From a phage: a stretch of DNA of 58,342 nt. Position 1 is the first letter of the stretch, and the number at the start of each line of letters is the position of its first letter. The DNA lies in sequence record PZ445426.1, one strand, 5' to 3'. The translations under genes were made by a program, and so were the position numbers. The notes beneath the pieces were generated by a model that was not told where the DNA came from, searched no databases, and saw only the letters and a program-made list of their open reading frames with translations. This document shows, one piece after another, positions 23,842 to 52,583 of this stretch.

Positions 23842-25827
23842 TTAGGCGTATCCCATGTCTTCGAGATACTTCTCTGCCTTAGCTATATAAGCATCATAAT
23901 CTATGTCGTCCGGTATTTTATCCGGTAGCGTCATGATTGGGACACCTCCCGCGCTACCAGCTACACGGTTGCCCGAGTTAGCATAGATTATTTCAGGGGT
24001 TTCTTCATTGGTGCTTAAATACCAGCGTACAACCTTACCCAAAAATTCGCCATTCCATACCGCGCCACCTTTCACCGCACGTAGGATAATGAATTTTCTA
24101 ATATCGTTGCAATTGCGTATAGTACGAGAAACAGGCGTACCGTGGGCCAAACATTCACATACAGCTTCCATAATAATTTCACCAGTACAGTTCTTTTGAA
24201 GTCCTGTCTTGGCAAACCAGCCCTTACGCTTAACTTCAACGTTACCTTCTGCATCAGGTTCTTTGACAGCTACATAGTTGTTAACGTTCGCGCTATATAG
24301 CTTGTCATAATAAGTGGATTCCATTTCAAAACCTGTGACGGATTCCCACCACTTGATCATGTTATCAACGAAGTCCTGCATGTGGTCGGGATACTTAACC
24401 ACAATACCATCGGTATTCGCTGAAATTACTTTAACACCGTTCAGCTCAAATGCTTCAATAAGCATTAACAGTGATAGTTGCCCTGTGATAGTTACCTGTA
24501 TCAATAATTGCGGCGCGTACAGTACGGACCACATAGACCCTAACTTACCGAACGATCCGTTGATTACGATCTTCAGCGTGTTGGCTGTGTTCTTGTCCCC
24601 TGAGTGCTTAGCTGCAATACGGCGATCTACAATACTTTTATAAACACGAAGGAACGCTGGTCCCAACTGCTCAGGGTATAATCCCTGATTAAGAATAATT
24701 GAAGGGTAATAAGACGTTACGTCAATGTCCCGCTTCTTAATACCAGGCTCTTTACCGTGACCAGCACACTCTTCGGAGCTATGCAAACCGCCAATACCCA
24801 TACGGTAGACACCGTCCGCAATCTTGATTTCAAGACCTGTTAACGCTGGGGGCAAGCTAACGCCACCGTTATCGCTAACAACAAAACGGCAGTCCCGAAC
24901 AATATCCAAAACACTATTCATCAGAGGTGTTTGAAAACGAATAAAGTCCGGTATGTTATACGCATACTTTGTTCCAGGATAAACTTGGGGACGCTGGGGA
25001 CGCACACCAGTTAATGCTTGAATTTCGTGTTTAATTACGTCTTCTGCAATCTGCGCATCAGAACGTGAACGCAGATCCACACCGTATTCTTGCGACATAA
25101 TTTCACGAAGGTGCAAAGGTTCTTGTAATGCAATAAAACATTCTTCTGTCTGTACAAGGTCGTTAATACAGTACCAGCGTACAATTAACATCTGGTCCTG
25201 CGTCAACATTGTATTTGGCTTGAACGGTAAATCCTGCATACGGCGAGTATGTACACGTCCGCCATATTGTTTCAAACCACCAGATCCAGGCAGAACTTCC
25301 ATAATATCAATGTGGTTAACGTTCTGCATACGCTTAAGGCGGTAACTCTTCAACACATCGGAAGGACGCCAATCTTCCACGATTATCTTATCGGTTGCGT
25401 GTTTAAGCTGCGCATTAGAACAGCCGTTAAGCGCAAGCGTAGCAATGGGCATATCGTACCCATTACCGTTAAAGCTTACGATAAGGAAGTTTGTCATTAC
25501 CCAGTTAAGTAACAAGCAATTTAAACTGCAACCGTGATACATTTCAAAGTAGACAACTTTCTTAGTTCGTACTCCGCGGAATGCGATCAAGAAATAGTTT
25601 GGATAACATTCGATATCATATACAAGCGGTTCGCGGTTGATCCATGCTTGAATGAGTTCGTCCTGAGTATACAGGTTATATTGGAAGTTTCGAGCTTCCT
25701 CTAGATTTGGCAAATAATCCGGGCGCTCCCAAGTGCGCTCCGGCGGTAAACGCTTAACCTTTTCTTTCTTCACTTTTGGCTCAGGCGGCAAGTCCTGCCA
25801 AAAGAAACCAATAGCATCGGTCCGCAT
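23842..25827 (-). CDS. DNA polymerase, family-B-like, with 3'-5' exonuclease domain
   Basis: Exo I-like YDIE; DVTSYYPSIIL (motif A DxxSLYPS-like); KIVINGSFGKLG (motif B-like); ATG 25827 overlaps upstream stop (TAATG). Confidence 0.7.
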   Translation of the reverse strand: MRTDAIGFFWQDLPPEPKVKKEKVKRLPPERTWERPDYLPNLEEARNFQYNLYTQDELIQAWINREPLVYDIECYPNYFLIAFRGVRTKKVVYFEMYHGCSLNCLLLNWVMTNFLIVSFNGNGYDMPIATLALNGCSNAQLKHATDKIIVEDWRPSDVLKSYRLKRMQNVNHIDIMEVLPGSGGLKQYGGRVHTRRMQDLPFKPNTMLTQDQMLIVRWYCINDLVQTEECFIALQEPLHLREIMSQEYGVDLRSRSDAQIAEDVIKHEIQALTGVRPQRPQVYPGTKYAYNIPDFIRFQTPLMNSVLDIVRDCRFVVSDNGGVSLPPALTGLEIKIADGVYRMGIGGLHSSEECAGHGKEPGIKKRDIDVTSYYPSIILNQGLYPEQLGPAFLRVYKSIVDRRIAAKHSGDKNTANTLKIVINGSFGKLGSMWSVLYAPQLLIQVTITGQLSLLMLIEAFELNGVKVISANTDGIVVKYPDHMQDFVDNMIKWWESVTGFEMESTYYDKLYSANVNNYVAVKEPDAEGNVEVKRKGWFAKTGLQKNCTGEIIMEAVCECLAHGTPVSRTIRNCNDIRKFIILRAVKGGAVWNGEFLGKVVRWYLSTNEETPEIIYANSGNRVAGSAGGVPIMTLPDKIPDDIDYDAYIAKAEKYLEDMGYA

Positions 25828-26780
25828 TAGACACGTTCTCCAATTAATACACCGCGAAGATTTTCCCCAAAGAATGCGCAAGGTTGCGGATACAAACTAA
25901 AGTCCGCGGTCTTAACCACTTTTTCAAGCAATAGCAGGATATCAATATTGTACACTCCCGTTATTGTTCGGTCCTGTAATACGAAGCTTGCACCTTCTGC
26001 ATCGTCATAATGGGTACGCGCCAGACCGTTTTCAATATATACACGAGGTCTGTCTTCAGCGAAAGGTTTGATTTTATGCAAGCCTTCAAAAAGACCTGGA
26101 TCAACAGGATGTGCATTGCATTGAACATTTAAAATACGACGTATATCGGGCCACTCCGCATCAATAAGCTGTGTCCGCAACCAGCGACCTTCCGGATAAT
26201 GAAACGTCACATTGTTCTTGCTAACCTGAATATGTGTCGGGTTAGCTTTAATGCGCAGTATTTCTTTGATAGCAACAGACGGTATTATGCAGTCAATAGG
26301 GAATTGATTACCAAACCAGTATTCCGCAATTGTGACGTTATTTGTAGCAAACAGGCTACCGTTATTGATCAGGATACCGCAAGCCCAAGGACGGGATGCG
26401 TCTGAGCCTACAAACGGGGCAACAGATTTCACACCATGTACGAAGCGAGCACCGTCTATTTCGTATAAATCGCCTTCAGGGAATACGTGAGGCGTTTCTT
26501 TATCAATACAGCGTATAGCAACACGAAACGGACCTGACTTAATATTCAGCTTACCGTTGGCCATCATTGTTAGCTGTACTGTTTCGTCGCAGTTTGAGAT
26601 AGCTTTAATCATAGGCCCAGCTTCGGGCTTACAATCAATATTCAGCTCAATAGGGCTACCCAGTGCAATAACACCGTTAAAGCCCTGTACCTGCCCGTCA
26701 CGAATAAGAAAACTGGTAAGCCCTTCTACCAGTTCCTTTTTAGCAACGGAGCCTTGAACAAATTTAAGAGCGTCTAACAT
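25827..26780 (-). CDS. hypothetical protein
   Basis: 317-aa ORF, GAGGA RBS, translationally coupled to the polymerase gene; no motif recognised. Confidence 0.5.
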   Translation of the reverse strand: MLDALKFVQGSVAKKELVEGLTSFLIRDGQVQGFNGVIALGSPIELNIDCKPEAGPMIKAISNCDETVQLTMMANGKLNIKSGPFRVAIRCIDKETPHVFPEGDLYEIDGARFVHGVKSVAPFVGSDASRPWACGILINNGSLFATNNVTIAEYWFGNQFPIDCIIPSVAIKEILRIKANPTHIQVSKNNVTFHYPEGRWLRTQLIDAEWPDIRRILNVQCNAHPVDPGLFEGLHKIKPFAEDRPRVYIENGLARTHYDDAEGASFVLQDRTITGVYNIDILLLLEKVVKTADFSLYPQPCAFFGENLRGVLIGERV

Positions 26781-27007
26781 TAGCGATCCTCGATTGCTCT
26801 AATTGTGGTTAAATCTAATTCACAAGTGGGAGGGTATCCATAAAGTCCCATTTGTTTCCCTTGTGCATTAAACCATGTACCTGACGGATCCTGCCACTGC
26901 TTAGGTGTCTTGTGGAGGAATACTACTCTGTTTTCACCGTAATAATTAATTCTTACGCCTGTGTGAGTATATTTACGTTTACCTTTTGGTCTTCTTAAGT
27001 TAGCCAT
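26780..27007 (-). CDS. hypothetical protein
   Basis: 75-aa basic ORF; overlapping start/stop with neighbours. Confidence 0.4.
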   Translation of the reverse strand: MANLRRPKGKRKYTHTGVRINYYGENRVVFLHKTPKQWQDPSGTWFNAQGKQMGLYGYPPTCELDLTTIRAIEDR

Positions 27008-27927
27008 CAGAACAACTCCATTACACGATCACGGAATGTGCCGTCATGGGTAGCGTTAATGTTTGCAGCAATTACACCATACGCCCATAAGTTGAAGGCG
27101 GCACGTGATTCATAGATTGTTGATAAACGTTCGTAAGTGAAACCGTTTTGCTCAAGGTATTTAAGGACAGCGTCTTGTTCAATTTCAGTTAATGTTGAAA
27201 CATGCTTACCAAAATGATGGCGGTCCGACGACTTATCTGATACGCGCATTGGTCCCCAGGGAGGAGTAACCACACTTCCAAACGCTGCCGCTTGAATCCA
27301 GGAAGATGAGTCACAGCTATACCACGGGTAACGTTCCATAATGGTAGTGGACGTAATACCAAATGCATGAAGCTTAATCTTAGGACGACCGCTACCATCG
27401 CAAATATATTTGTCCCACATACGGTCAAGCCATGTTTTAAGCGTGTCCGTTGAACGCCCTACCATGCCACCAATCGTGATATATTCGTAGTTCTTCATGT
27501 AATATTCAAGATAGCGGAAGTCCTCACCAAAGTGAAAGCAAGGTAACGGTTTAGCACCGCGTGCTTCCATTTCAAGCTGGTTACGGTAGGTTTGCAGTGG
27601 ATCACCGATACCATCGAGCACCGACGCCATTACTGCACCATCTTCTACGCGAAGGATGTCTTTGTTGCGCTTAATGTATTCGCAGTATTCAACAATATCA
27701 ATGTGAGCACCCAAAGAGTGCGCGGAGAATGCACCGGAGTCGAGAAACACTTTAGCCCCGTCCGCACGCATCTGATCAACATACTTCTGACGCCCAACGT
27801 AGTGGTATGATTCCAAAATATGGGGCAGATTGCGCGTGATATTTTTCTCATGCTCGGACAACTTTTCATAACGCTGCTGACCAGGCATATATCCGTTCGT
27901 GTAAACTGCTGCCATAAAAACGTTCAT
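27007..27927 (-). CDS. dpdA: DpdA-like DNA-guanine transglycosylase (TGT fold)
   Basis: 306 aa; FLDSGAFS motif resembling the TGT catalytic DSG motif; GGAGG RBS; adjacent to the folE/queD/queC/queE cluster. Confidence 0.5.
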   Translation of the reverse strand: MNVFMAAVYTNGYMPGQQRYEKLSEHEKNITRNLPHILESYHYVGRQKYVDQMRADGAKVFLDSGAFSAHSLGAHIDIVEYCEYIKRNKDILRVEDGAVMASVLDGIGDPLQTYRNQLEMEARGAKPLPCFHFGEDFRYLEYYMKNYEYITIGGMVGRSTDTLKTWLDRMWDKYICDGSGRPKIKLHAFGITSTTIMERYPWYSCDSSSWIQAAAFGSVVTPPWGPMRVSDKSSDRHHFGKHVSTLTEIEQDAVLKYLEQNGFTYERLSTIYESRAAFNLWAYGVIAANINATHDGTFRDRVMELF

Positions 27928-36127: not shown

Positions 36128-36636
36128 AAAGGTCTCACTGTTCTATGATTCTTGTTAAACCCGTATGTAATTTCAGCCTCTTTTCTTGTCTTTATTGCGT
36201 CTTGTAGACTTTCAAAATAACCAAGATGCAGCCGAATACCGTATACATCAATCTGAGCTTTCCATTTCTTATTTGCCTTAGCCCACGTTACTCCAGGACA
36301 ACCGCTCTTATTATTCGATGGTAGTTTTCTATTATGGTTGTTATGGTATTTATTACTTTTATTTAGATTAGTTTTCCAATTATGCGTACCGTCACCATCA
36401 TCATGATCAATATATTCTGGTTCTTCGTTATAGAGCATTTTCCAGATTATACGATGTGCGTAATAATTAAGACCGTTCATAAAAACCATAATATAGGTTT
36501 TACCATGACTAAAAGTAACTTCACTCCCTGCAATTTGACCGTTATGGTTCCAGAATAAGTTACCGCTATCTTCGCTATAGCTAAAAATCCTATTGAGTTC
36601 TTCTTGCGTCGGTAGCGGCAACCTTTTCATAATCAA
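36124..36636 (-). CDS. HNH homing endonuclease with AP2 DNA-binding domain
   Basis: HRIIW...IDHDDGDGTHN (HNH) followed by GVTWAKANKKWKAQI...LGYFES (AP2-like). Confidence 0.65.
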   Translation of the reverse strand: MIMKRLPLPTQEELNRIFSYSEDSGNLFWNHNGQIAGSEVTFSHGKTYIMVFMNGLNYYAHRIIWKMLYNEEPEYIDHDDGDGTHNWKTNLNKSNKYHNNHNRKLPSNNKSGCPGVTWAKANKKWKAQIDVYGIRLHLGYFESLQDAIKTRKEAEITYGFNKNHRTVRPL

Positions 36637-37541
36637 TCTTTCCCGTAATAATTAGCTACTTGATAGTTTTGACAACCAACTTTCTGTCCTTGCGTATCCA
36701 CTGAGGCGGAATGGAAATTGCAATACCATGTTCCATCTTCTTTTGGTTCAAGGAATTGACATGTGCGGCAGTTTACTTCCGGCATAGTTTTACGCCAGCA
36801 TAGTGAGGAGTGATCGCACCATTTACATTCGAAGAAAGTGGAATCTTTAAACGCGCGGTCCGGAATATCTGTAGCAATAGCAATCTGCACACCACGATCA
36901 ATATACATGTCCGCGGTAACAGGATCAAACGGAATAATTTCTGCGTAAACTTCATCGTCATTCTTGTTTACAGCAAGATATAACGCTGCGCCAAGACCTA
37001 GTTTTCGCATGTACACGTTCATCTGTACATAGTGCTCAGGTTTGGCTTCTTTGACACCTTTAGCTTTCAGCTTTTTAAAAGACTTATCGTTATGGGTTTT
37101 CATTTCGGTAAGCACAGGCATCCCAGGCTGCACGTCCGGACAACCTATAACCACACCATCGCAGGAACCGCCAAAGTGTCCGCCAGCTTCGCTGATACGG
37201 AACTGGTGTCCGTTTTCATCCTGCTGGTAGACCTGCATACCTGCCGCAAGAAGCATAGCAATAAAGCGCGCTTCTTCCAGATGTCCGCGGTTAAACAGTC
37301 GAAGCTGGCGTCCGTCAAACTCTTTGCGTGTAGCCCAGCGATATCCATAGAAAAGCTTTCGTGCGCATTGTTGACCAATAAGGGAAGCGCCTAAGTGACT
37401 GCGGTTACCGCTTTCAGGACGATAAGCGTCTTCAATTGTGGGAATAACTACGCCAAGATACTTACGGTAAGTCCCACCCTGATCTTTTTGCACACCATCA
37501 TTGATCGCTTGAAGTGTTTTTTCTGCAATATAAATAGCCAT
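36633..37541 (-). CDS. PD-(D/E)xK nuclease (Cas4/RecB-like exonuclease) with C-terminal Cys cluster
   Basis: D...EMK core, QMNVY motif, four C-terminal cysteines (CKWCDHSSLC...CRTC) consistent with an Fe-S cluster. Confidence 0.55.
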   Translation of the reverse strand: MAIYIAEKTLQAINDGVQKDQGGTYRKYLGVVIPTIEDAYRPESGNRSHLGASLIGQQCARKLFYGYRWATRKEFDGRQLRLFNRGHLEEARFIAMLLAAGMQVYQQDENGHQFRISEAGGHFGGSCDGVVIGCPDVQPGMPVLTEMKTHNDKSFKKLKAKGVKEAKPEHYVQMNVYMRKLGLGAALYLAVNKNDDEVYAEIIPFDPVTADMYIDRGVQIAIATDIPDRAFKDSTFFECKWCDHSSLCWRKTMPEVNCRTCQFLEPKEDGTWYCNFHSASVDTQGQKVGCQNYQVANYYGKD

Positions 37542-37606: not shown

Positions 37607-38488
37607 TTACTGCTGCCACGGCGGGACTGCTGCTTGTGCCGGATGCGGTTCAGCTTGCTGCTGAGGCTGAGCTTGCTGCTGAGGTGCTGCTGCCTGGCCT
37701 GGCTGTGCTACCTGCTGCGCCCACGGCTGCTGAGCTGCTTCCGGTGCTACTGGCTGTTGTACCGGAGCTTGCTGCACTGGCTGCTGTGGTGCTGCATTTT
37801 GAGCAGGATTATCCCACGGCTGCGGTGCGGCGTTCTGCCACGGTTGAGCTGCTGCGCCCTGCTGCGGTGCTGGTTGCTGCACAGGCTGCTGAACTGGCTG
37901 CTGTTGCTGCACCGGAGCTTGCTGCTGTACAGGTGCTTGCTGTTGCTGAGCAAACGGGTTAGCTGCTGGTTGCCGAGGTGCTGCGCCCGGGAAAGCTGGC
38001 TGCTGTGCTGGAGCACCTGCACCAAACGGGTTAGCTACTGCTGGAGCACCCATTGATGAAGCCTCTGCTGCTTTTTCTGCATATTTAACCGGATCGTTGA
38101 TGTTAGCGTAACCGTTAGGCTCGTTGCTGTCTTCATAACCTTCCTGAGAACGAACTTTCAGACGCAGGTTCAGCGGAATGTTATGCAGCTGAGCAGGGGT
38201 ATCCCAGCGAATTACACCAACCGCATGGGACAGAGCACCCAGTTGCTCGTAAGCGATGCGTACAGTATCTTCGTTGTCGTTAATGACGTTATAACGAGCA
38301 AAGATTTTACGCCCTTTAGCAAAACCGTCAATGATGCTAAACGTTACCTGGATCGCCATACCGCCGTTTTTGGTCGGTTTAAATTCAGATGCTTCAATTA
38401 CTGCTTTATACCAACCTTTCGGCAATGCGCCGTAAGAAGGTGCTTGATAGCTGCTCGCGTCAAAGTGGAAATTAGTTGGCATAGTCAT
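37607..38488 (-). CDS. putative ssDNA-binding protein with long Gln/Pro/Ala-rich low-complexity tail
   Basis: about 140-aa globular N-terminus then about 150 aa of PVQQ/AQQ repeats; directly downstream of Sak4-like ATPase. Confidence 0.45.
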   Translation of the reverse strand: MTMPTNFHFDASSYQAPSYGALPKGWYKAVIEASEFKPTKNGGMAIQVTFSIIDGFAKGRKIFARYNVINDNEDTVRIAYEQLGALSHAVGVIRWDTPAQLHNIPLNLRLKVRSQEGYEDSNEPNGYANINDPVKYAEKAAEASSMGAPAVANPFGAGAPAQQPAFPGAAPRQPAANPFAQQQQAPVQQQAPVQQQQPVQQPVQQPAPQQGAAAQPWQNAAPQPWDNPAQNAAPQQPVQQAPVQQPVAPEAAQQPWAQQVAQPGQAAAPQQQAQPQQQAEPHPAQAAVPPWQQ

Positions 38489-39216
38489 TAGTTGATACCT
38501 TTCATTTTGTTGATAACAGAACCTAAGTGTGGGACTTCAACCGCATCTAAACGTCCCGAACGATCCTTAGCGATTGTATTAAAGTCCGGTTGAGTTTGCA
38601 AGTAACGATACGAGTTACCTTGCTGATCCTTATTTACATTCAGACGAAATACTTCGTCGAAGAAATAAGGGAGCATTTGCCCCAATTTGGACCCAGGCAT
38701 TGATGGAGCATACGCGGTAACACCGGAGACTTCATCTTTGTCTTTGCCCATTTTAGCAGACATATAAACATGTTTGCCAGGAATATCGCGAAACTTACGG
38801 ATTAGATCTTGCATCTTTTCAAGCAAAGTACCATAAGCTTGACGAGGATCTTTCGTTCCCTTTTTCGCGTTGTTTAAACATTGTTCAGCAATTTCGCTCA
38901 AGCTGTCAAGCGCAATAGAATCGAAATACTGCTGGTTAGCTGGAGTTACGCACCACTGATAAGCCGCTTCAACGTCTTCCAGACATTTCACTTCAATTAC
39001 CGGAATATCGTAAACGATGGGTAAACCCATGTTACCATAAACACGGTTAAGGTTTTCCGCTGCAATAGACAACAGACCGGATTCTGCGCTGATTAAAATT
39101 GGTTTAGGTAATGTGGCTACAAGGCTGGTTTTACCCATACCCGCTTCACCGTAAACCAGAATTTTAACACCTGTGTCCTGCACAACTTGTGAAGACATTT
39201 TAATTTCAATGGCCAT
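38488..39216 (-). CDS. Sak4-like RecA-fold ATPase
   Basis: Walker A YGEAGMGKTS near N-terminus; 242 aa; paired with SSB-like gene. Confidence 0.6.
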   Translation of the reverse strand: MAIEIKMSSQVVQDTGVKILVYGEAGMGKTSLVATLPKPILISAESGLLSIAAENLNRVYGNMGLPIVYDIPVIEVKCLEDVEAAYQWCVTPANQQYFDSIALDSLSEIAEQCLNNAKKGTKDPRQAYGTLLEKMQDLIRKFRDIPGKHVYMSAKMGKDKDEVSGVTAYAPSMPGSKLGQMLPYFFDEVFRLNVNKDQQGNSYRYLQTQPDFNTIAKDRSGRLDAVEVPHLGSVINKMKGIN

Positions 39217-45202: not shown

Positions 45203-45230
45203 AAAGGGCCGAAAGGCCCTTTATTTATTT
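45203..45230. terminator. bidirectional terminator (AAAGGGCC-gaaa-GGCCCTTT + T-rich)
   Basis: read directly between convergent genes 44974..45198 (+) and 45225..47561 (-). Confidence 0.6.
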
Positions 45231-47561
45231 GCTTAAGTCTTTGAAAACACTCTCAATTGACTCGTCTATATACCATCCCAACCCCCTGAAATTACGCTTC
45301 AATGCATCCTCACGCGTAACCGGAACAAGCGCGCCCATATCTACAAGTTGTTTGATAGTGAGGTCTGTTGCAGTACCTGCTCCCATCCTGTGATTCTTGA
45401 ATGCTGCTAGCCCGTAGGTTCTGCGTGTGATAGTTGCCTTCGGAATAATACCGTCAACGCGCAGCTCCTTACGATCACATGCAATTTTACCGCCAAGATA
45501 GTCTTTGCAGACCTGACAGATAGCCTTCACACGCGTTTCATCATCACCGCCAATAGTACCTTTTTCCCATGCGTTGATCATGATGTCCTGCCCATGCGTG
45601 ACAAAATCTACCGCCCATTGCATGTGATTGGGTTGAACGACAGGATTGATCCAGTTTTCCCCCACTGCTAACAGGGAGGCGAGACGCAGAGCTTTAAGGT
45701 GAGCACGGTTCCACGGCTGACGAATTGCTTCGTCTTTTGTTGCGTTAATGTGTTCATCGCACAACAAGTTAAACTCCCGCTCAATCCTTGCAGCTTCCGG
45801 GCTTAACTGGACGGTAACGGTCTGAAACTTTGCCATTGTCACTAACGTGTGGTTAACAAGATGACAGACCATGTCCTTTAATTGTTGGGGCATTGTAATT
45901 TCAGGATTCTCGTTTGCAGGAACACGATCCCCTTCATATTGCACAATGTGGAAACGGGACAAGAAACCGTCTTCCATCATTTCACGTGTTAACGCTTCAA
46001 AGAAGGTGTCTGGTGTTGTTTCGCCCAGCACGCTGAACGCCACCCCTTCCATCGTTTTGGTATTATTAGCCTTATCAGAATATCCGATACCGCCAACAAC
46101 ATCCATCGCACCAGATTTTTGATACACATCTGTGATAGTTTGCTTCAGGGTATAGTTTGCAGTGCCAGGTTGAGCCGTTGCCATACCTTTAATGGTTTTA
46201 CCAAACTCACCGTTAATATTCACAAACGAAGTGTGATCCGCAAAACTTTTACGCAAGGCAGGACCGGAAGCATAGTTAGTCATGTCTACAAATTCATGCA
46301 CTTGCGGTAATTGCTCCCCTACTTGCTTACAGATATAGCTGGGCCCAGCGTGAAGCATTTCTTTGCCCACACCTGATCGGGCAATGAGCACAAAGTAACC
46401 GTTCAACCCTGTGTTGGTGATAGTATTCCATACCTTACCGCACACACCAGACAGAAATGCTAACGATGCGGTGATTGCAATTTCTTTAACCGGACGTTGC
46501 GATGCTTTGTAGATGTACTTCGCAAGCTCCCCAGCAAGCCCCGGCGGCCACTCAATAGCGGTTGCATCAATAGACGTACTTTCTGCGACCACTATTTCAC
46601 CAGAAGGGCTAACTGTGGTTACAGGCATCTCTGTTACTTGCTGCATTGTGCTGTGTGCTGCTTGCATACGGGCAGCGTAATCCCGCGCCAGCGCCGCTAC
46701 GTTTTCCTGGGCAATGCGCTCACGCTCCATGCGACCTCGACACATACGCAAGCAACGGTCAATATGAACATTGTTCTTATTAGCCTTCTCACGTTTGCCC
46801 AGTGCACTGTAACGAAATAAACGGCGACATTGCTCATTACTTTCCGTGTAGAATGCATACATAGAAATAAGGGCAAGGTCTGCTTCAGACTGGGAGGGGA
46901 ATCCCATTTCAACCCATTCACCATTAAATAACCGCGCATACTTATCGCCGTTATCTGCTTCAAGTGCACGCTGGTGAATAGTTGCATCATCTTCTACCGG
47001 ATCTTTTTCTACCAGTTCAATTTCATATGTCTTGCGCTGAAGATCAATTTCATTCACAAGCATAGTAAGGTAATGATCACGTTCTGCAACTGGTTTGTTG
47101 TAGACGGGATTACCCGTGCAGATAATAAAACGCTCCTGACTATAAACCTCGACACCATCACGTCGACGACCTTTACCGATGTTACCTCTTAACCACAGGT
47201 GAACACCCAAGCCTGAGCGACTCACTTCGGTGTAAGTATCGAACGCAGTCATGATCTGTTCGAAGCGGCGCAACTGCTCCGGCGTCGTGTGCTTCTTGGG
47301 ATCAGGTTCATTGGTTGCATTCTTCACATCCAGGTCGATGCAGGTGAACGGGTCTTGTGCAGTAAGCACGAAGCCAATATAAGGTTTATTGAAATGAGCG
47401 GCGCAACCTTTGGCAGCTTCAAACGTCATAAGGATATCCGGATCGGTAACGTCCGCCGCCATCAAACGTCCGATATCGTTGTCCCATACAAGCGGCTTTT
47501 TATCCGCATCGGCCACCGCCCATTGTGGGAAAGCTTTAATTTCAGCGGGAAACAGTTCCAT
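45225..47561 (-). CDS. primase-polymerase (Prim-Pol, AEP superfamily) with C-terminal extension
   Basis: Prim-Pol motifs: CIDLDV (DxD), SRSGLGVHLWL (SGxGxH), ERFIICTGN; 778 aa. Confidence 0.65.
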   Translation of the reverse strand: MELFPAEIKAFPQWAVADADKKPLVWDNDIGRLMAADVTDPDILMTFEAAKGCAAHFNKPYIGFVLTAQDPFTCIDLDVKNATNEPDPKKHTTPEQLRRFEQIMTAFDTYTEVSRSGLGVHLWLRGNIGKGRRRDGVEVYSQERFIICTGNPVYNKPVAERDHYLTMLVNEIDLQRKTYEIELVEKDPVEDDATIHQRALEADNGDKYARLFNGEWVEMGFPSQSEADLALISMYAFYTESNEQCRRLFRYSALGKREKANKNNVHIDRCLRMCRGRMERERIAQENVAALARDYAARMQAAHSTMQQVTEMPVTTVSPSGEIVVAESTSIDATAIEWPPGLAGELAKYIYKASQRPVKEIAITASLAFLSGVCGKVWNTITNTGLNGYFVLIARSGVGKEMLHAGPSYICKQVGEQLPQVHEFVDMTNYASGPALRKSFADHTSFVNINGEFGKTIKGMATAQPGTANYTLKQTITDVYQKSGAMDVVGGIGYSDKANNTKTMEGVAFSVLGETTPDTFFEALTREMMEDGFLSRFHIVQYEGDRVPANENPEITMPQQLKDMVCHLVNHTLVTMAKFQTVTVQLSPEAARIEREFNLLCDEHINATKDEAIRQPWNRAHLKALRLASLLAVGENWINPVVQPNHMQWAVDFVTHGQDIMINAWEKGTIGGDDETRVKAICQVCKDYLGGKIACDRKELRVDGIIPKATITRRTYGLAAFKNHRMGAGTATDLTIKQLVDMGALVPVTREDALKRNFRGLGWYIDESIESVFKDLSK

Positions 47562-51700: not shown

Positions 51701-52098
51701 TGTACAAAGGTAATGGTAATGCATTAGCTCGGGCAAAACAGGCGCACAGCGTCGCGCACAGCTCGCACAGCGCACACAGACCCACGCAGGTCCAGCCGCG
51801 CGACCCGACCCATCCTTTTCCAGGTACTTGGATCGCTGGGGCGTGCCCTGTCTATCCTGATAGTAAGTCCACGCCTAAATCTCACCTGTCACATAGCCCA
51901 TCCACCTACATCCATGACCCCACCTACCTTCTTTTTGAATATATTGCGCTCATCCTTTCTAAATATATGGATTTTGGTAGTAAATTCTGAGTCGTCAACG
52001 TATAATTCGTCTTGTAGCTGCTCCATAGCTACCATCTTTAAGCGGATGCAACCAATTTCTATCAATTCACACCTGTTTTAGAGCATCAAGGAGGTATT

Positions 52099-52350
52099 AT
52101 GTGCAACTCCAGTGCAAGCGCTACACCCAGTACCTCCAGCAATGTGGTTACAGAGGTAAATGCAATGCGATTAGGTCCATATCGCGGCTATTATGGTCGT
52201 GCTGCATGGAATGACGCTACTCAACGTTTTGAAGGCTGGATTATCTGCCCGGAACGTGTTAAATTTCACTCCGTAAAAGAGAAAAATATCGTTCTTAATT
52301 TTCAAAAATGTGTCACTAAATATGTAGAGGAGCAAGAAGAATGCGTGTAA
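52099..52350 (+). CDS. hypothetical protein
   Basis: 83 aa; AAGGAGG RBS. Confidence 0.45.
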   Translation: MCNSSASATPSTSSNVVTEVNAMRLGPYRGYYGRAAWNDATQRFEGWIICPERVKFHSVKEKNIVLNFQKCVTKYVEEQEECV

Positions 52351-52583
52351 AAGACGAGCAAAAGACAGTCGAATACTTCGGAATGCAAATTGTTGTTCCG
52401 GAATGGGTTAAATGGCTTGCTGTCGATGGTAACGGCAAATTATTCGGTTATGAATGTGAGCCCGACATTTTAGTTGATGAAGATTGGGATGAATGGTACA
52501 GCGAAGAAGGCAAATGCCGCTGCATTACAGAAGTCATCCTTGAAGAAGAACATTGGTCACAAACCTTAGTGGAGCTTTTTTAA
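52341..52583 (+). CDS. hypothetical protein (paralog of 52681..52983)
   Basis: 80 aa; shares motif W-x-W-[LI]AVDG-x-GK-x-x-Y-[ED]-x-x-P with the next gene. Confidence 0.45.
   Translation: MRVKDEQKTVEYFGMQIVVPEWVKWLAVDGNGKLFGYECEPDILVDEDWDEWYSEEGKCRCITEVILEEEHWSQTLVELF

Follow-up and report, generated by a model that had tools for sequence, protein, structure and literature searches.

A DnaN-like sliding clamp encoded near dpdA in a Seuratvirus genome: probable processivity factor of the phage polymerase and possible partner of the DNA-modifying enzyme DpdA

The window analyzed here, a stretch of 58,342 nucleotides of phage DNA (sequence record PZ445426.1), amounts to an essentially complete Seuratvirus (Queuovirinae) genome. 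It encodes a protein of 317 amino acids (aa) which a sequence-only reading had placed, exactly but without naming a strand, at 25827-26780 and had left unassigned. Judged by its family, its sequence profile and its predicted fold, this protein is a beta-type (DnaN-like) sliding clamp, encoded on the minus strand. The joint best explanation of the findings, to which we give a probability of about 80%, is that the phage possesses its own beta-type clamp, which would confer processivity on the family-B DNA polymerase (PolB) translated right after it; that the clamp also recruits the DNA 7-deazaguanine transglycosylase DpdA is less certain.

The identity of the clamp is ordinary, since it has been annotated before in public genomes. 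The protein matches PHROG 947, "DNA polymerase processivity factor", at an E-value of 1.5e-81, with residues 1-317 lying on profile positions 12-365 of 368. Its counterpart in phage KurtStettler (bas22_0036) is 99.4% identical and annotated 'DNA polymerase beta subunit', and 99%-identical proteins of Seuratvirus genomes are named polymerase beta subunit or processivity factor, so that "unassigned" did not hold. The open reading frame (ORF) lies far beyond chance, with more than 500 homologs at E<=1e-3, the 120 listed ones all at E<=1e-100, and 359 phage records with a match to the protein. For the PHROG 947 clamp family, no experimental study turned up in the literature searched.

Profile and structure comparisons lead to the same protein class. 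A search of the PDB with the single sequence reached the E. coli beta clamp at E ~0.01 over ~70 residues, while a profile built from 41 clamp-family sequences matched the beta clamp of D. radiodurans (4trt) at E 2.8e-5, and the alignment of the clamp family with E. coli DnaN by hhalign extends over 273 columns (E 6.5e-6). The AlphaFold2 (AF2) model calculated on the family alignment has a mean predicted local distance difference test score (pLDDT) of 92.1 and a predicted template modeling score (pTM) of 0.86, and it repeats the strand and helix pattern of the clamp domain three times. When this model was compared with the PDB by Foldseek, the best 50 matches were full-length bacterial DnaN proteins only (E 4e-20 to 2.5e-18, with TM 0.83 at E 4e-20), with query-normalized template modeling (TM) scores of 0.76-0.85 over 353-372 columns at 14-17% identity. 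AF2 and Foldseek thus find three tandem clamp-fold domains per protomer, and because the PHROG, profile, AF2 and Foldseek results agree, we read the protein as a DnaN-type three-domain protomer. A T4 gp45/PCNA-type identity is ruled out by the three-domain model and by the all-DnaN composition of the best 50 PDB matches. The protein has an isoelectric point (pI) of 5.8 and, with 317 versus 366 aa, falls some 50 residues short of bacterial beta; by analogy with bacterial DnaN, two copies would form a six-domain ring around duplex DNA.

The absence of a recognizable motif, noted in the sequence-only reading, is accurate by eye only, since profile and fold methods give the protein a clear assignment. 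That reading had proposed profile comparison and structure prediction as checks, and hhalign, AF2 and Foldseek all lead to DnaN clamps. It had also named a clear unrelated homolog as the outcome that would speak against it; because the clear homolog is itself a replication factor, the suggested role as a replication accessory factor stands, and is made specific as a beta-type sliding clamp (PHROG 947, 4trt, AF2, Foldseek).

The clamp gene belongs to a compact group of genes, of which the following features are relevant here.

25827..26780, minus strand: clamp gene, 317 aa; ATG at 26780-26778, stop codon TAA at 25829-25827
26787..26791, minus strand: Shine-Dalgarno sequence GAGGA, 6 nucleotides (nt) 5' of the clamp ATG, read from the sequence
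25825..25829, minus strand: TAATG junction of the clamp TAA (25829-25827) with the polymerase ATG (25827-25825), a 1-nt overlap
23842..25827, minus strand: polymerase gene, 661 aa, divergent family-B; PHROG 1252, E 1e-228
26780..27007, minus strand: 75-aa ORF between dpdA and the clamp gene; PHROG 38388, E 8e-58
27007..27927, minus strand: dpdA, 306 aa, DNA 7-deazaguanine transglycosylase; PHROG 887, E 4e-96

The good ribosome-binding site and the TAATG overlap with the polymerase start, both described earlier, are present as listed. The proposed coupling of the gene between dpdA and the polymerase is correct for the polymerase junction; dpdA is not the direct neighbor, as the 75-aa ORF intervenes. 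This ORF is joined to the dpdA stop by TGATG and to the clamp start by TAATG, and since such 1-nt stop/start overlaps occur throughout, the four genes from dpdA to the polymerase are linked in a single chain. In phage KurtStettler the counterpart of the 75-aa ORF is annotated hypothetical and that of DpdA carries the annotation DpdA; in other lineages, the position of the 75-aa ORF is occupied by different small ORFs, or by none. The polymerase shows weak but consistent PDB profile matches to archaeal PolB and to E. coli Pol II, and the NCBIfam PolB and Pol II models match it under their cut-offs. An automatic ORF call (23842..25881, minus strand) lengthens the polymerase by 18 codons to a TTG at 25881, inside the clamp gene; conservation points to the ATG at 25827 as the start, since the N-termini of homologs keep M-R-T-D-A-I-G.

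The polymerase begins with a module of about 50 aa which, as its conservation and distribution suggest, probably tethers the enzyme to the clamp.

25678..25827, minus strand: N-terminal module of the polymerase (~50 aa), consisting of MRTDAIGFFWQD, a Lys/Pro-rich (K/P-rich) linker and PPERTWERPDYLP; putative clamp-binding tether

Its consensus reads M-R-x-D-x-x-G-[FLM]-F-W-x-D, followed by the K/P-rich linker and P-P-x-x-x-W-x-x-x-x-Y-L-P. Among 30 homologs, the positions R2, D4, G7, F9, W10, D12, P28, W33, Y38, L39 and P40 are invariant and the linker is variable; the pattern G-h-[FW]-W occurs in the first 16 residues of 118 of the 120 polymerase homologs listed. The clamp-binding motif of E. 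coli Pol II is QLGLF, and that of the delta subunit, AMSLF, lacks the Gln (PMC11139829). The core A-I-G-F-F of the phage module resembles the Pol II motif minus its Gln.

The distribution of the module follows that of the clamp. In a survey of 80 IMG/VR loci with PolB relatives, the phages KL1 and 9NA and the window, 69 PolB loci were clamp-positive, and in most of these the clamp gene lies directly 5' of the polymerase. When the first ATG is taken as the start, the PolBs of 66 of the 69 loci extend at their N-terminus by 39 aa or more; the remaining three (L039, L041, L047) have motif-like peptides in frame upstream, behind non-ATG starts. More divergent N-termini include MELQGLFW, MKRFQEGLF, MFFEEVP and MFFENLP. 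Where there is no clamp gene within 10 kb, the PolB starts 1-29 aa ahead of the Exo I motif and the module is absent (12 of 12 loci). Furthermore, the module is not confined to family B, and the evidence on this point is independent and stronger. In a second, DpdA-selected survey of 79 diverse viral loci (identity to the lead sequence 33-48%; dpdA complete in 78), all 32 PolBs carry it, and so do 25 of the 28 family-A polymerases encoded after homologous clamps. These 28 were assigned by a local core match to the polymerase of locus L118; Pfam confirms family A in four scanned module-bearing polymerases (PF00476 and PF01612) and in the three without the module (L112, L133 and L178; PF00476). 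The PolB profile matches 19 of the 25 module-bearing family-A polymerases, solely at profile positions 1 to ~53. A module which moves across unrelated polymerase families, adjoins the clamp gene and is missing where there is no clamp is therefore best explained as a clamp tether.

Two further kinds of polymerase terminus were observed in these surveys. The PolB of Burkholderia phage KL1 (L082, 16667-18736), encoded directly after the clamp gene, lacks the N-terminal G-F-F-W, starts with MLNEQGFVV and ends in TTAPLFF-COOH; in the lineage of KL1, the docking motif may have shifted to the C-terminal end. In the loci L133, L169, L178 and L189, a domain of the uracil-DNA glycosylase (UDG) superfamily is fused to a family-A polymerase downstream of distant clamps, and the fusion (UDG-PolA) starts M-x-G-F-F followed by a K-rich stretch (MKGFFTKK, MGFFFAEDKKKK, MAFFKASE, MEGFFTKK); this N-terminus may be another clamp-docking variant.

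On the clamp, the corresponding binding site is plausibly retained as well, as the alignment with E. coli beta suggests. With subsites I and II taken from the published residue list (PMC11139829), E. coli R152 corresponds to R130 of the phage clamp (98% conserved in the phage family), P242 to P211 (invariant), R246/V247 to R215/I216 (R in 54% and V in 49% of the family) and Y323 to Y277 (78%). P363-M364-R365 corresponds to G314-(M/E)315-R316, of which the G is invariant, so that the C-terminus of the phage family reads I-[VI]-G-M-R-x versus V-M-P-M-R-L in E. coli. The invariant A-T-N-N at 145-148 of the clamp family pairs with the E. coli ATDG(HRL) strand in hhalign. In the mechanism we propose, the polymerase tether would consist of a portable N-terminal module with R-x-D-x-x-G-F-F-W, a flexible K/P-rich linker and the P-P-x-x-x-W element, and would dock in the cleft that separates domains II and III of the clamp and to which the C-terminal tail contributes.

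A second candidate client is DpdA, the C-terminus of which resembles a clamp-binding motif.

27010..27024, minus strand: C-terminal tail of DpdA, V-M-E-L-F-COOH; family consensus [IV]-Q-E-L-F-COOH, clamp-binding-like

When the termini of all ORFs in the window were scanned with a regular expression for such motifs, the matches were the polymerase, DpdA (R-V-M-E-L-F-COOH) and two small ORFs only. The latter belong to a cluster of hypothetical genes: an 87-aa ORF (52320..52583, plus strand) ends in SQTLVELF, and another (51728..52081, plus strand) in INSHLF. As a clamp client, the 87-aa ORF was rejected; because its homologs are found in Klebsiella and Erwinia phages that have no clamp, with alignments which break off before the end, its LF ending is probably due to chance.

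The DpdA homologs in the PolB loci have an LF-like end in 57 of 57 cases, mostly [VI]-Q-E-L-F-COOH. Across the neighborhoods of these loci, endings of the type [LMIF]F.{0,2} are found in 91% of DpdAs versus 2.9% of 3,601 background ORFs, and DpdA is the sole conserved neighborhood family that is enriched: the clamp, FolE, QueC/D/E, the helicase and the exonuclease stand at 0%, and PolB at 5%. Among close DpdA homologs, 115 of the 120 listed end in [LM]F. The tail is also present at greater distances. A profile search of 1.84 billion representatives yielded 6,550 DpdA relatives, the best 150 of which were taken, and 126 of these reach the C-terminal part of the profile. In this diverse set, 65 of the 126 (52%) end in [LMFI]F.{0,2}, compared with 3% of the background, and 40 (32%) end in Q.{1,3}[LMFI]F, compared with 1%. 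These Q-type tails represent the canonical bacterial motif (for example EQPGLF, RQPRLF and VQDTLF), and the residues ahead of the motif vary freely. Scans with the single DpdA proteins of Dp-1 and Qyrzula returned only close relatives.

Some of the DpdA relatives deviate in length or number. Six representatives (P0363, P0368, P0377, P0386, P0395 and P0426) are 535-637 aa long, about twice the normal length, and match the profile in two stretches split near position 205, a pattern consistent with an inserted intein, homing endonuclease or similar large element; in Pseudomonas phage NP1, a 'homing endonuclease' is annotated at dpdA. That the long DpdAs are clamp fusions is ruled out, as none of them matches the clamp hidden Markov model. 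Arthrobacter phage Sonali (L108, 16993-17610) has a second, shorter TGT/DpdA-like gene, gp81, which ends in the clamp-motif-like QDALFPV. No phage clamp was found among the 27 kb of Sonali examined, so that the gp81 tail could target the host clamp.

The genes dpdA and clamp form a pair across very different phages. In the DpdA-selected survey, a clamp gene on the same strand, at a distance from overlapping to ~2.3 kb downstream of dpdA, is present in 74 of the 78 loci with a complete dpdA, and two of the four without it are cut by contig ends. The pair persists upstream of polymerases of family B and family A, of UDG-PolA fusions and of DnaE-like Pol III alpha subunits. Named examples with a clamp near dpdA are Streptococcus phage Dp-1 (DpdA ending in RQRRLF), Bacillus phage Flasso (SQGKLF), Synechococcus phage Ssp-JY38 (PDPVLF), BcepGomr (QQGLFV) and Achromobacter phage ART (QMELLG). 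In three actinophage lineages without a detected clamp, namely Rosebushvirus (checked over the whole genome, which has Pol I), Sonali and Bipper (both checked in part), DpdA has no LF tail. Six loci (L166, L175, L177, L179, L182 and L187) combine the dpdA-clamp pair with a DnaE-like polymerase, confirmed by Pfam for L175 (PHP, DNA_pol3_alpha and finger domains) and sharing in the other five the same PHP-type H-L-H-x-H N-terminus. Most of their DpdAs carry a second type of tail, WPW.FK....GF[GS]L, with L187 ending in GFGFKKG, which suggests that another motif is used where the clamp is more DnaN-like.

From the tail and the gene pair we infer that DpdA may be a client of the clamp. The clamp would recruit DpdA through the C-terminal [IV]-Q-E-L-F-COOH tail, a step less certain than its role for the polymerase; once tethered, the enzyme would move together with the fork or closely behind it, and the exchange of guanine for preQ0 would then take place on freshly replicated DNA. 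The earlier suggestion of a modification-pathway component is incorrect in the enzymatic sense, because the clamp protein has no catalytic fold; it may be partly right in an indirect sense, by way of the DpdA tail and the dpdA-clamp pair. In its full form, in which the clamp serves as a hub and links DNA hypermodification with replication, with DpdA tethered by its tail and polymerases docking by a portable module exchanged between families A and B, this proposal is tentative, and we would put it slightly short of an even chance.

Several findings weigh against one part or another of this account. As for the clamp, the Pfam model DNA_pol3_beta_2 (PF02767; E 1.7e-4) scores 22.3 bits, under its cut-off of 27, the model TIGR00663 for dnaN (E 2e-8) scores 33.6 bits, under its cut-off of 137.65, and the identity to DnaN is a mere 14-17%. 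Since the curated DnaN cut-offs are missed, the protein is placed in a divergent phage subfamily and not with orthologous DnaN. In the cleft, the hhalign and MAFFT registers differ around E. coli T172-L177, and neither alignment shows a conserved counterpart of H175/R176 in the phage clamp, so that the cleft is comparable in part only. As for the polymerase, the 12 clamp-less PolBs form two clades in a neighbor-joining tree, and the correlation between extension and clamp thus corresponds to about two evolutionary events. As for DpdA, its AF2 model is poor (pLDDT 65.6) and uninformative on exposure or disorder of the tail, and with a clamp at 74 of 78 DpdA loci there is no contrast left for relating the LF tail to the presence of a clamp. 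In phage phiSM, DpdA has no LF tail even though a gene for a processivity factor is found at a distance of 2.5 kb. The DpdA of L132 has the canonical ending RQPELFA, with no clamp gene detected in the 10 kb to its left or right; among the cases of a tail without a clamp, L132 alone has full 10-kb flanks, and L116, with flanks of ~3.5 kb, likewise has a tail and no clamp. Finally, the DpdA tail fits the consensus for the host beta clamp equally well, and the host clamp is therefore a possible target.

An alternative reading is that the clamp serves the polymerase only, and that the tail of DpdA binds host beta or acts within DpdA itself, by way of folding, oligomerization or another partner. 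The adjacency of dpdA and the clamp gene would then merely reflect the position of modification genes inside the replication module, as in the paper on phage iggy, where deazaguanine genes simply adjoin polymerase genes (PMC10484667). The match of the tail to the canonical host motif QxxLF, the tail of L132 in the absence of a phage clamp within 10 kb and the tailless DpdA beside the phiSM clamp gene all fit this explanation. It leaves unexplained why the tail is unique to DpdA among ~10 conserved neighborhood families, with overlapping-frame ORFs not enriched either, why it is kept while the preceding residues of DpdA vary freely, why the order dpdA-clamp holds while the downstream polymerase switches among family B, family A and DnaE-like enzymes, and why the three clamp-less actinophage lineages have no tail. 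We regard a clamp for the polymerase alone as unlikely, though not to be set aside lightly.

A different set of considerations concerns the loading of the clamp. Among 14 replication-module proteins scanned with Pfam and PHROGs, no RFC/DnaX-type loader was found, and the KurtStettler annotation lists none. P-loop proteins are limited to three among the 14, namely a Sak4-like AAA_24 protein, a helicase of SF2 and a helicase of the prim-pol/DUF3987 type; further proteins of the module are a DUF669 protein resembling single-stranded DNA-binding (SSB) proteins, a Cas4 exonuclease, a ligase and a RusA/PDDEXK nuclease. Four of these were located as follows.

38488..39216: Sak4-like AAA_24 protein
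37607..38488: DUF669 SSB-like protein
36633..37541: Cas4-type exonuclease
45225..47561, minus strand: 778-aa 'primase' with an NrS-1-like prim-pol helical bundle domain and a DUF3987 helicase-type domain

As no phage loader was recognized, we assume that the host DnaX complex most likely loads the phage clamp, which raises the question of whether that complex can load a clamp ~15% identical to host beta. With no loader recognized in the phage, the clamp must meet the host machinery or none, and together with its beta-like C-terminal tail and the several retained cleft positions, this might hint at a clamp mimic for host takeover, which would titrate the host loader or clamp-binding proteins, or form mixed rings with DnaN, and thereby stop host replication. 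We consider such a function very improbable, given the translational coupling of the clamp gene to the phage polymerase, its position nearly always directly upstream of a phage polymerase with a dedicated conserved N-terminal module, and an identity to DnaN so low that mixed dimers are unlikely. Least probable of all is that the clamp acts also or mainly as a mobile activator of late transcription which couples late genes to replication, an idea resting on precedent only (T4 gp45, and phage Mu, where host beta has recently been reported to activate late transcription), as no gp33/gp55-like or MuC-like partner was seen, none having been looked for, and conserved LF-type motifs at a terminus are seen in none of the other proteins of the window.

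The processivity role of the clamp and its possible link to DpdA bear on a wider process. Deazaguanine-modifying phages, among them the Queuovirinae and many others, exchange a constant share of their G residues once the DNA has been replicated. In the literature searched, we found no explanation of how DpdA finds new phage DNA and, as far as the titles and abstracts of papers mentioning both go, no link between DpdA and a sliding clamp; the main DpdA papers leave the clamp unmentioned. The DpdA tail and the near-universal dpdA-clamp pair would provide a simple mechanism by which DpdA finds newly made phage DNA. If so, dpdA and the clamp gene would be a conserved functional gene pair over very different phages, with any polymerase family, and DpdA would, as far as the literature searched shows, be the first example in bacteria or phages of a DNA base-modifying enzyme tethered to a clamp. 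The portable polymerase module would likewise be a compact docking peptide exchanged between unrelated polymerase families, and it could help to annotate clamp clients in phage genomes.

Of the known systems close to it, the clamp genes annotated in Seuratvirus, Nonagvirus and other siphophages (KurtStettler bas22_0036, KS_S4, Vid5, KL1, Ab26) belong to the same family, PHROG 947, share its location upstream of the polymerase and show no difference for the gene itself. With bacterial DnaN (E. coli PDB 1mmi/2pol, P. aeruginosa 6ams) the phage clamp shares the full-length three-domain fold (E ~1e-19, TM ~0.8), an acidic pI, a comparable tail (G-M-R-x in place of P-M-R-L) and, in the alignments, several cleft positions (R152, P242, R246/V247 and Y323), and its putative clients carry short hydrophobic terminal motifs with LF or FF at the end, like QL[SD]LF. 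It differs from DnaN in that it adjoins a family-B, elsewhere a family-A, polymerase and not Pol III alpha, in that the motif of the polymerase sits at the N-terminus, without the Gln and with an extra Trp, and in that the phage encodes no recognized cognate loader.

The gp45-gp43 system of T4/RB69 likewise pairs a phage clamp with a phage family-B polymerase that is bound, here putatively, by a short terminal peptide, and in both cases the clamp may be a hub for further clients. gp45 is a two-domain protomer which forms a PCNA-like trimer and has its own loader, gp44/62, and the motif of the RB69/T4 polymerase is C-terminal. The phage clamp described here, in contrast, is a DnaN-like protomer of three domains for which no loader was recognized, and the polymerase motif is N-terminal. 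For DpdA, the nearest counterpart is the eukaryotic DNA methyltransferase Dnmt1, which is tethered to PCNA by a PCNA-interacting protein (PIP) box, so that modification follows the fork. Although the clamp class and the motif are different, the reaction is methyl transfer as opposed to base exchange, and there is no sign of homology, the proposed tethering of DpdA would be functionally analogous, in that a modifying enzyme is held on a sliding clamp by a short motif.

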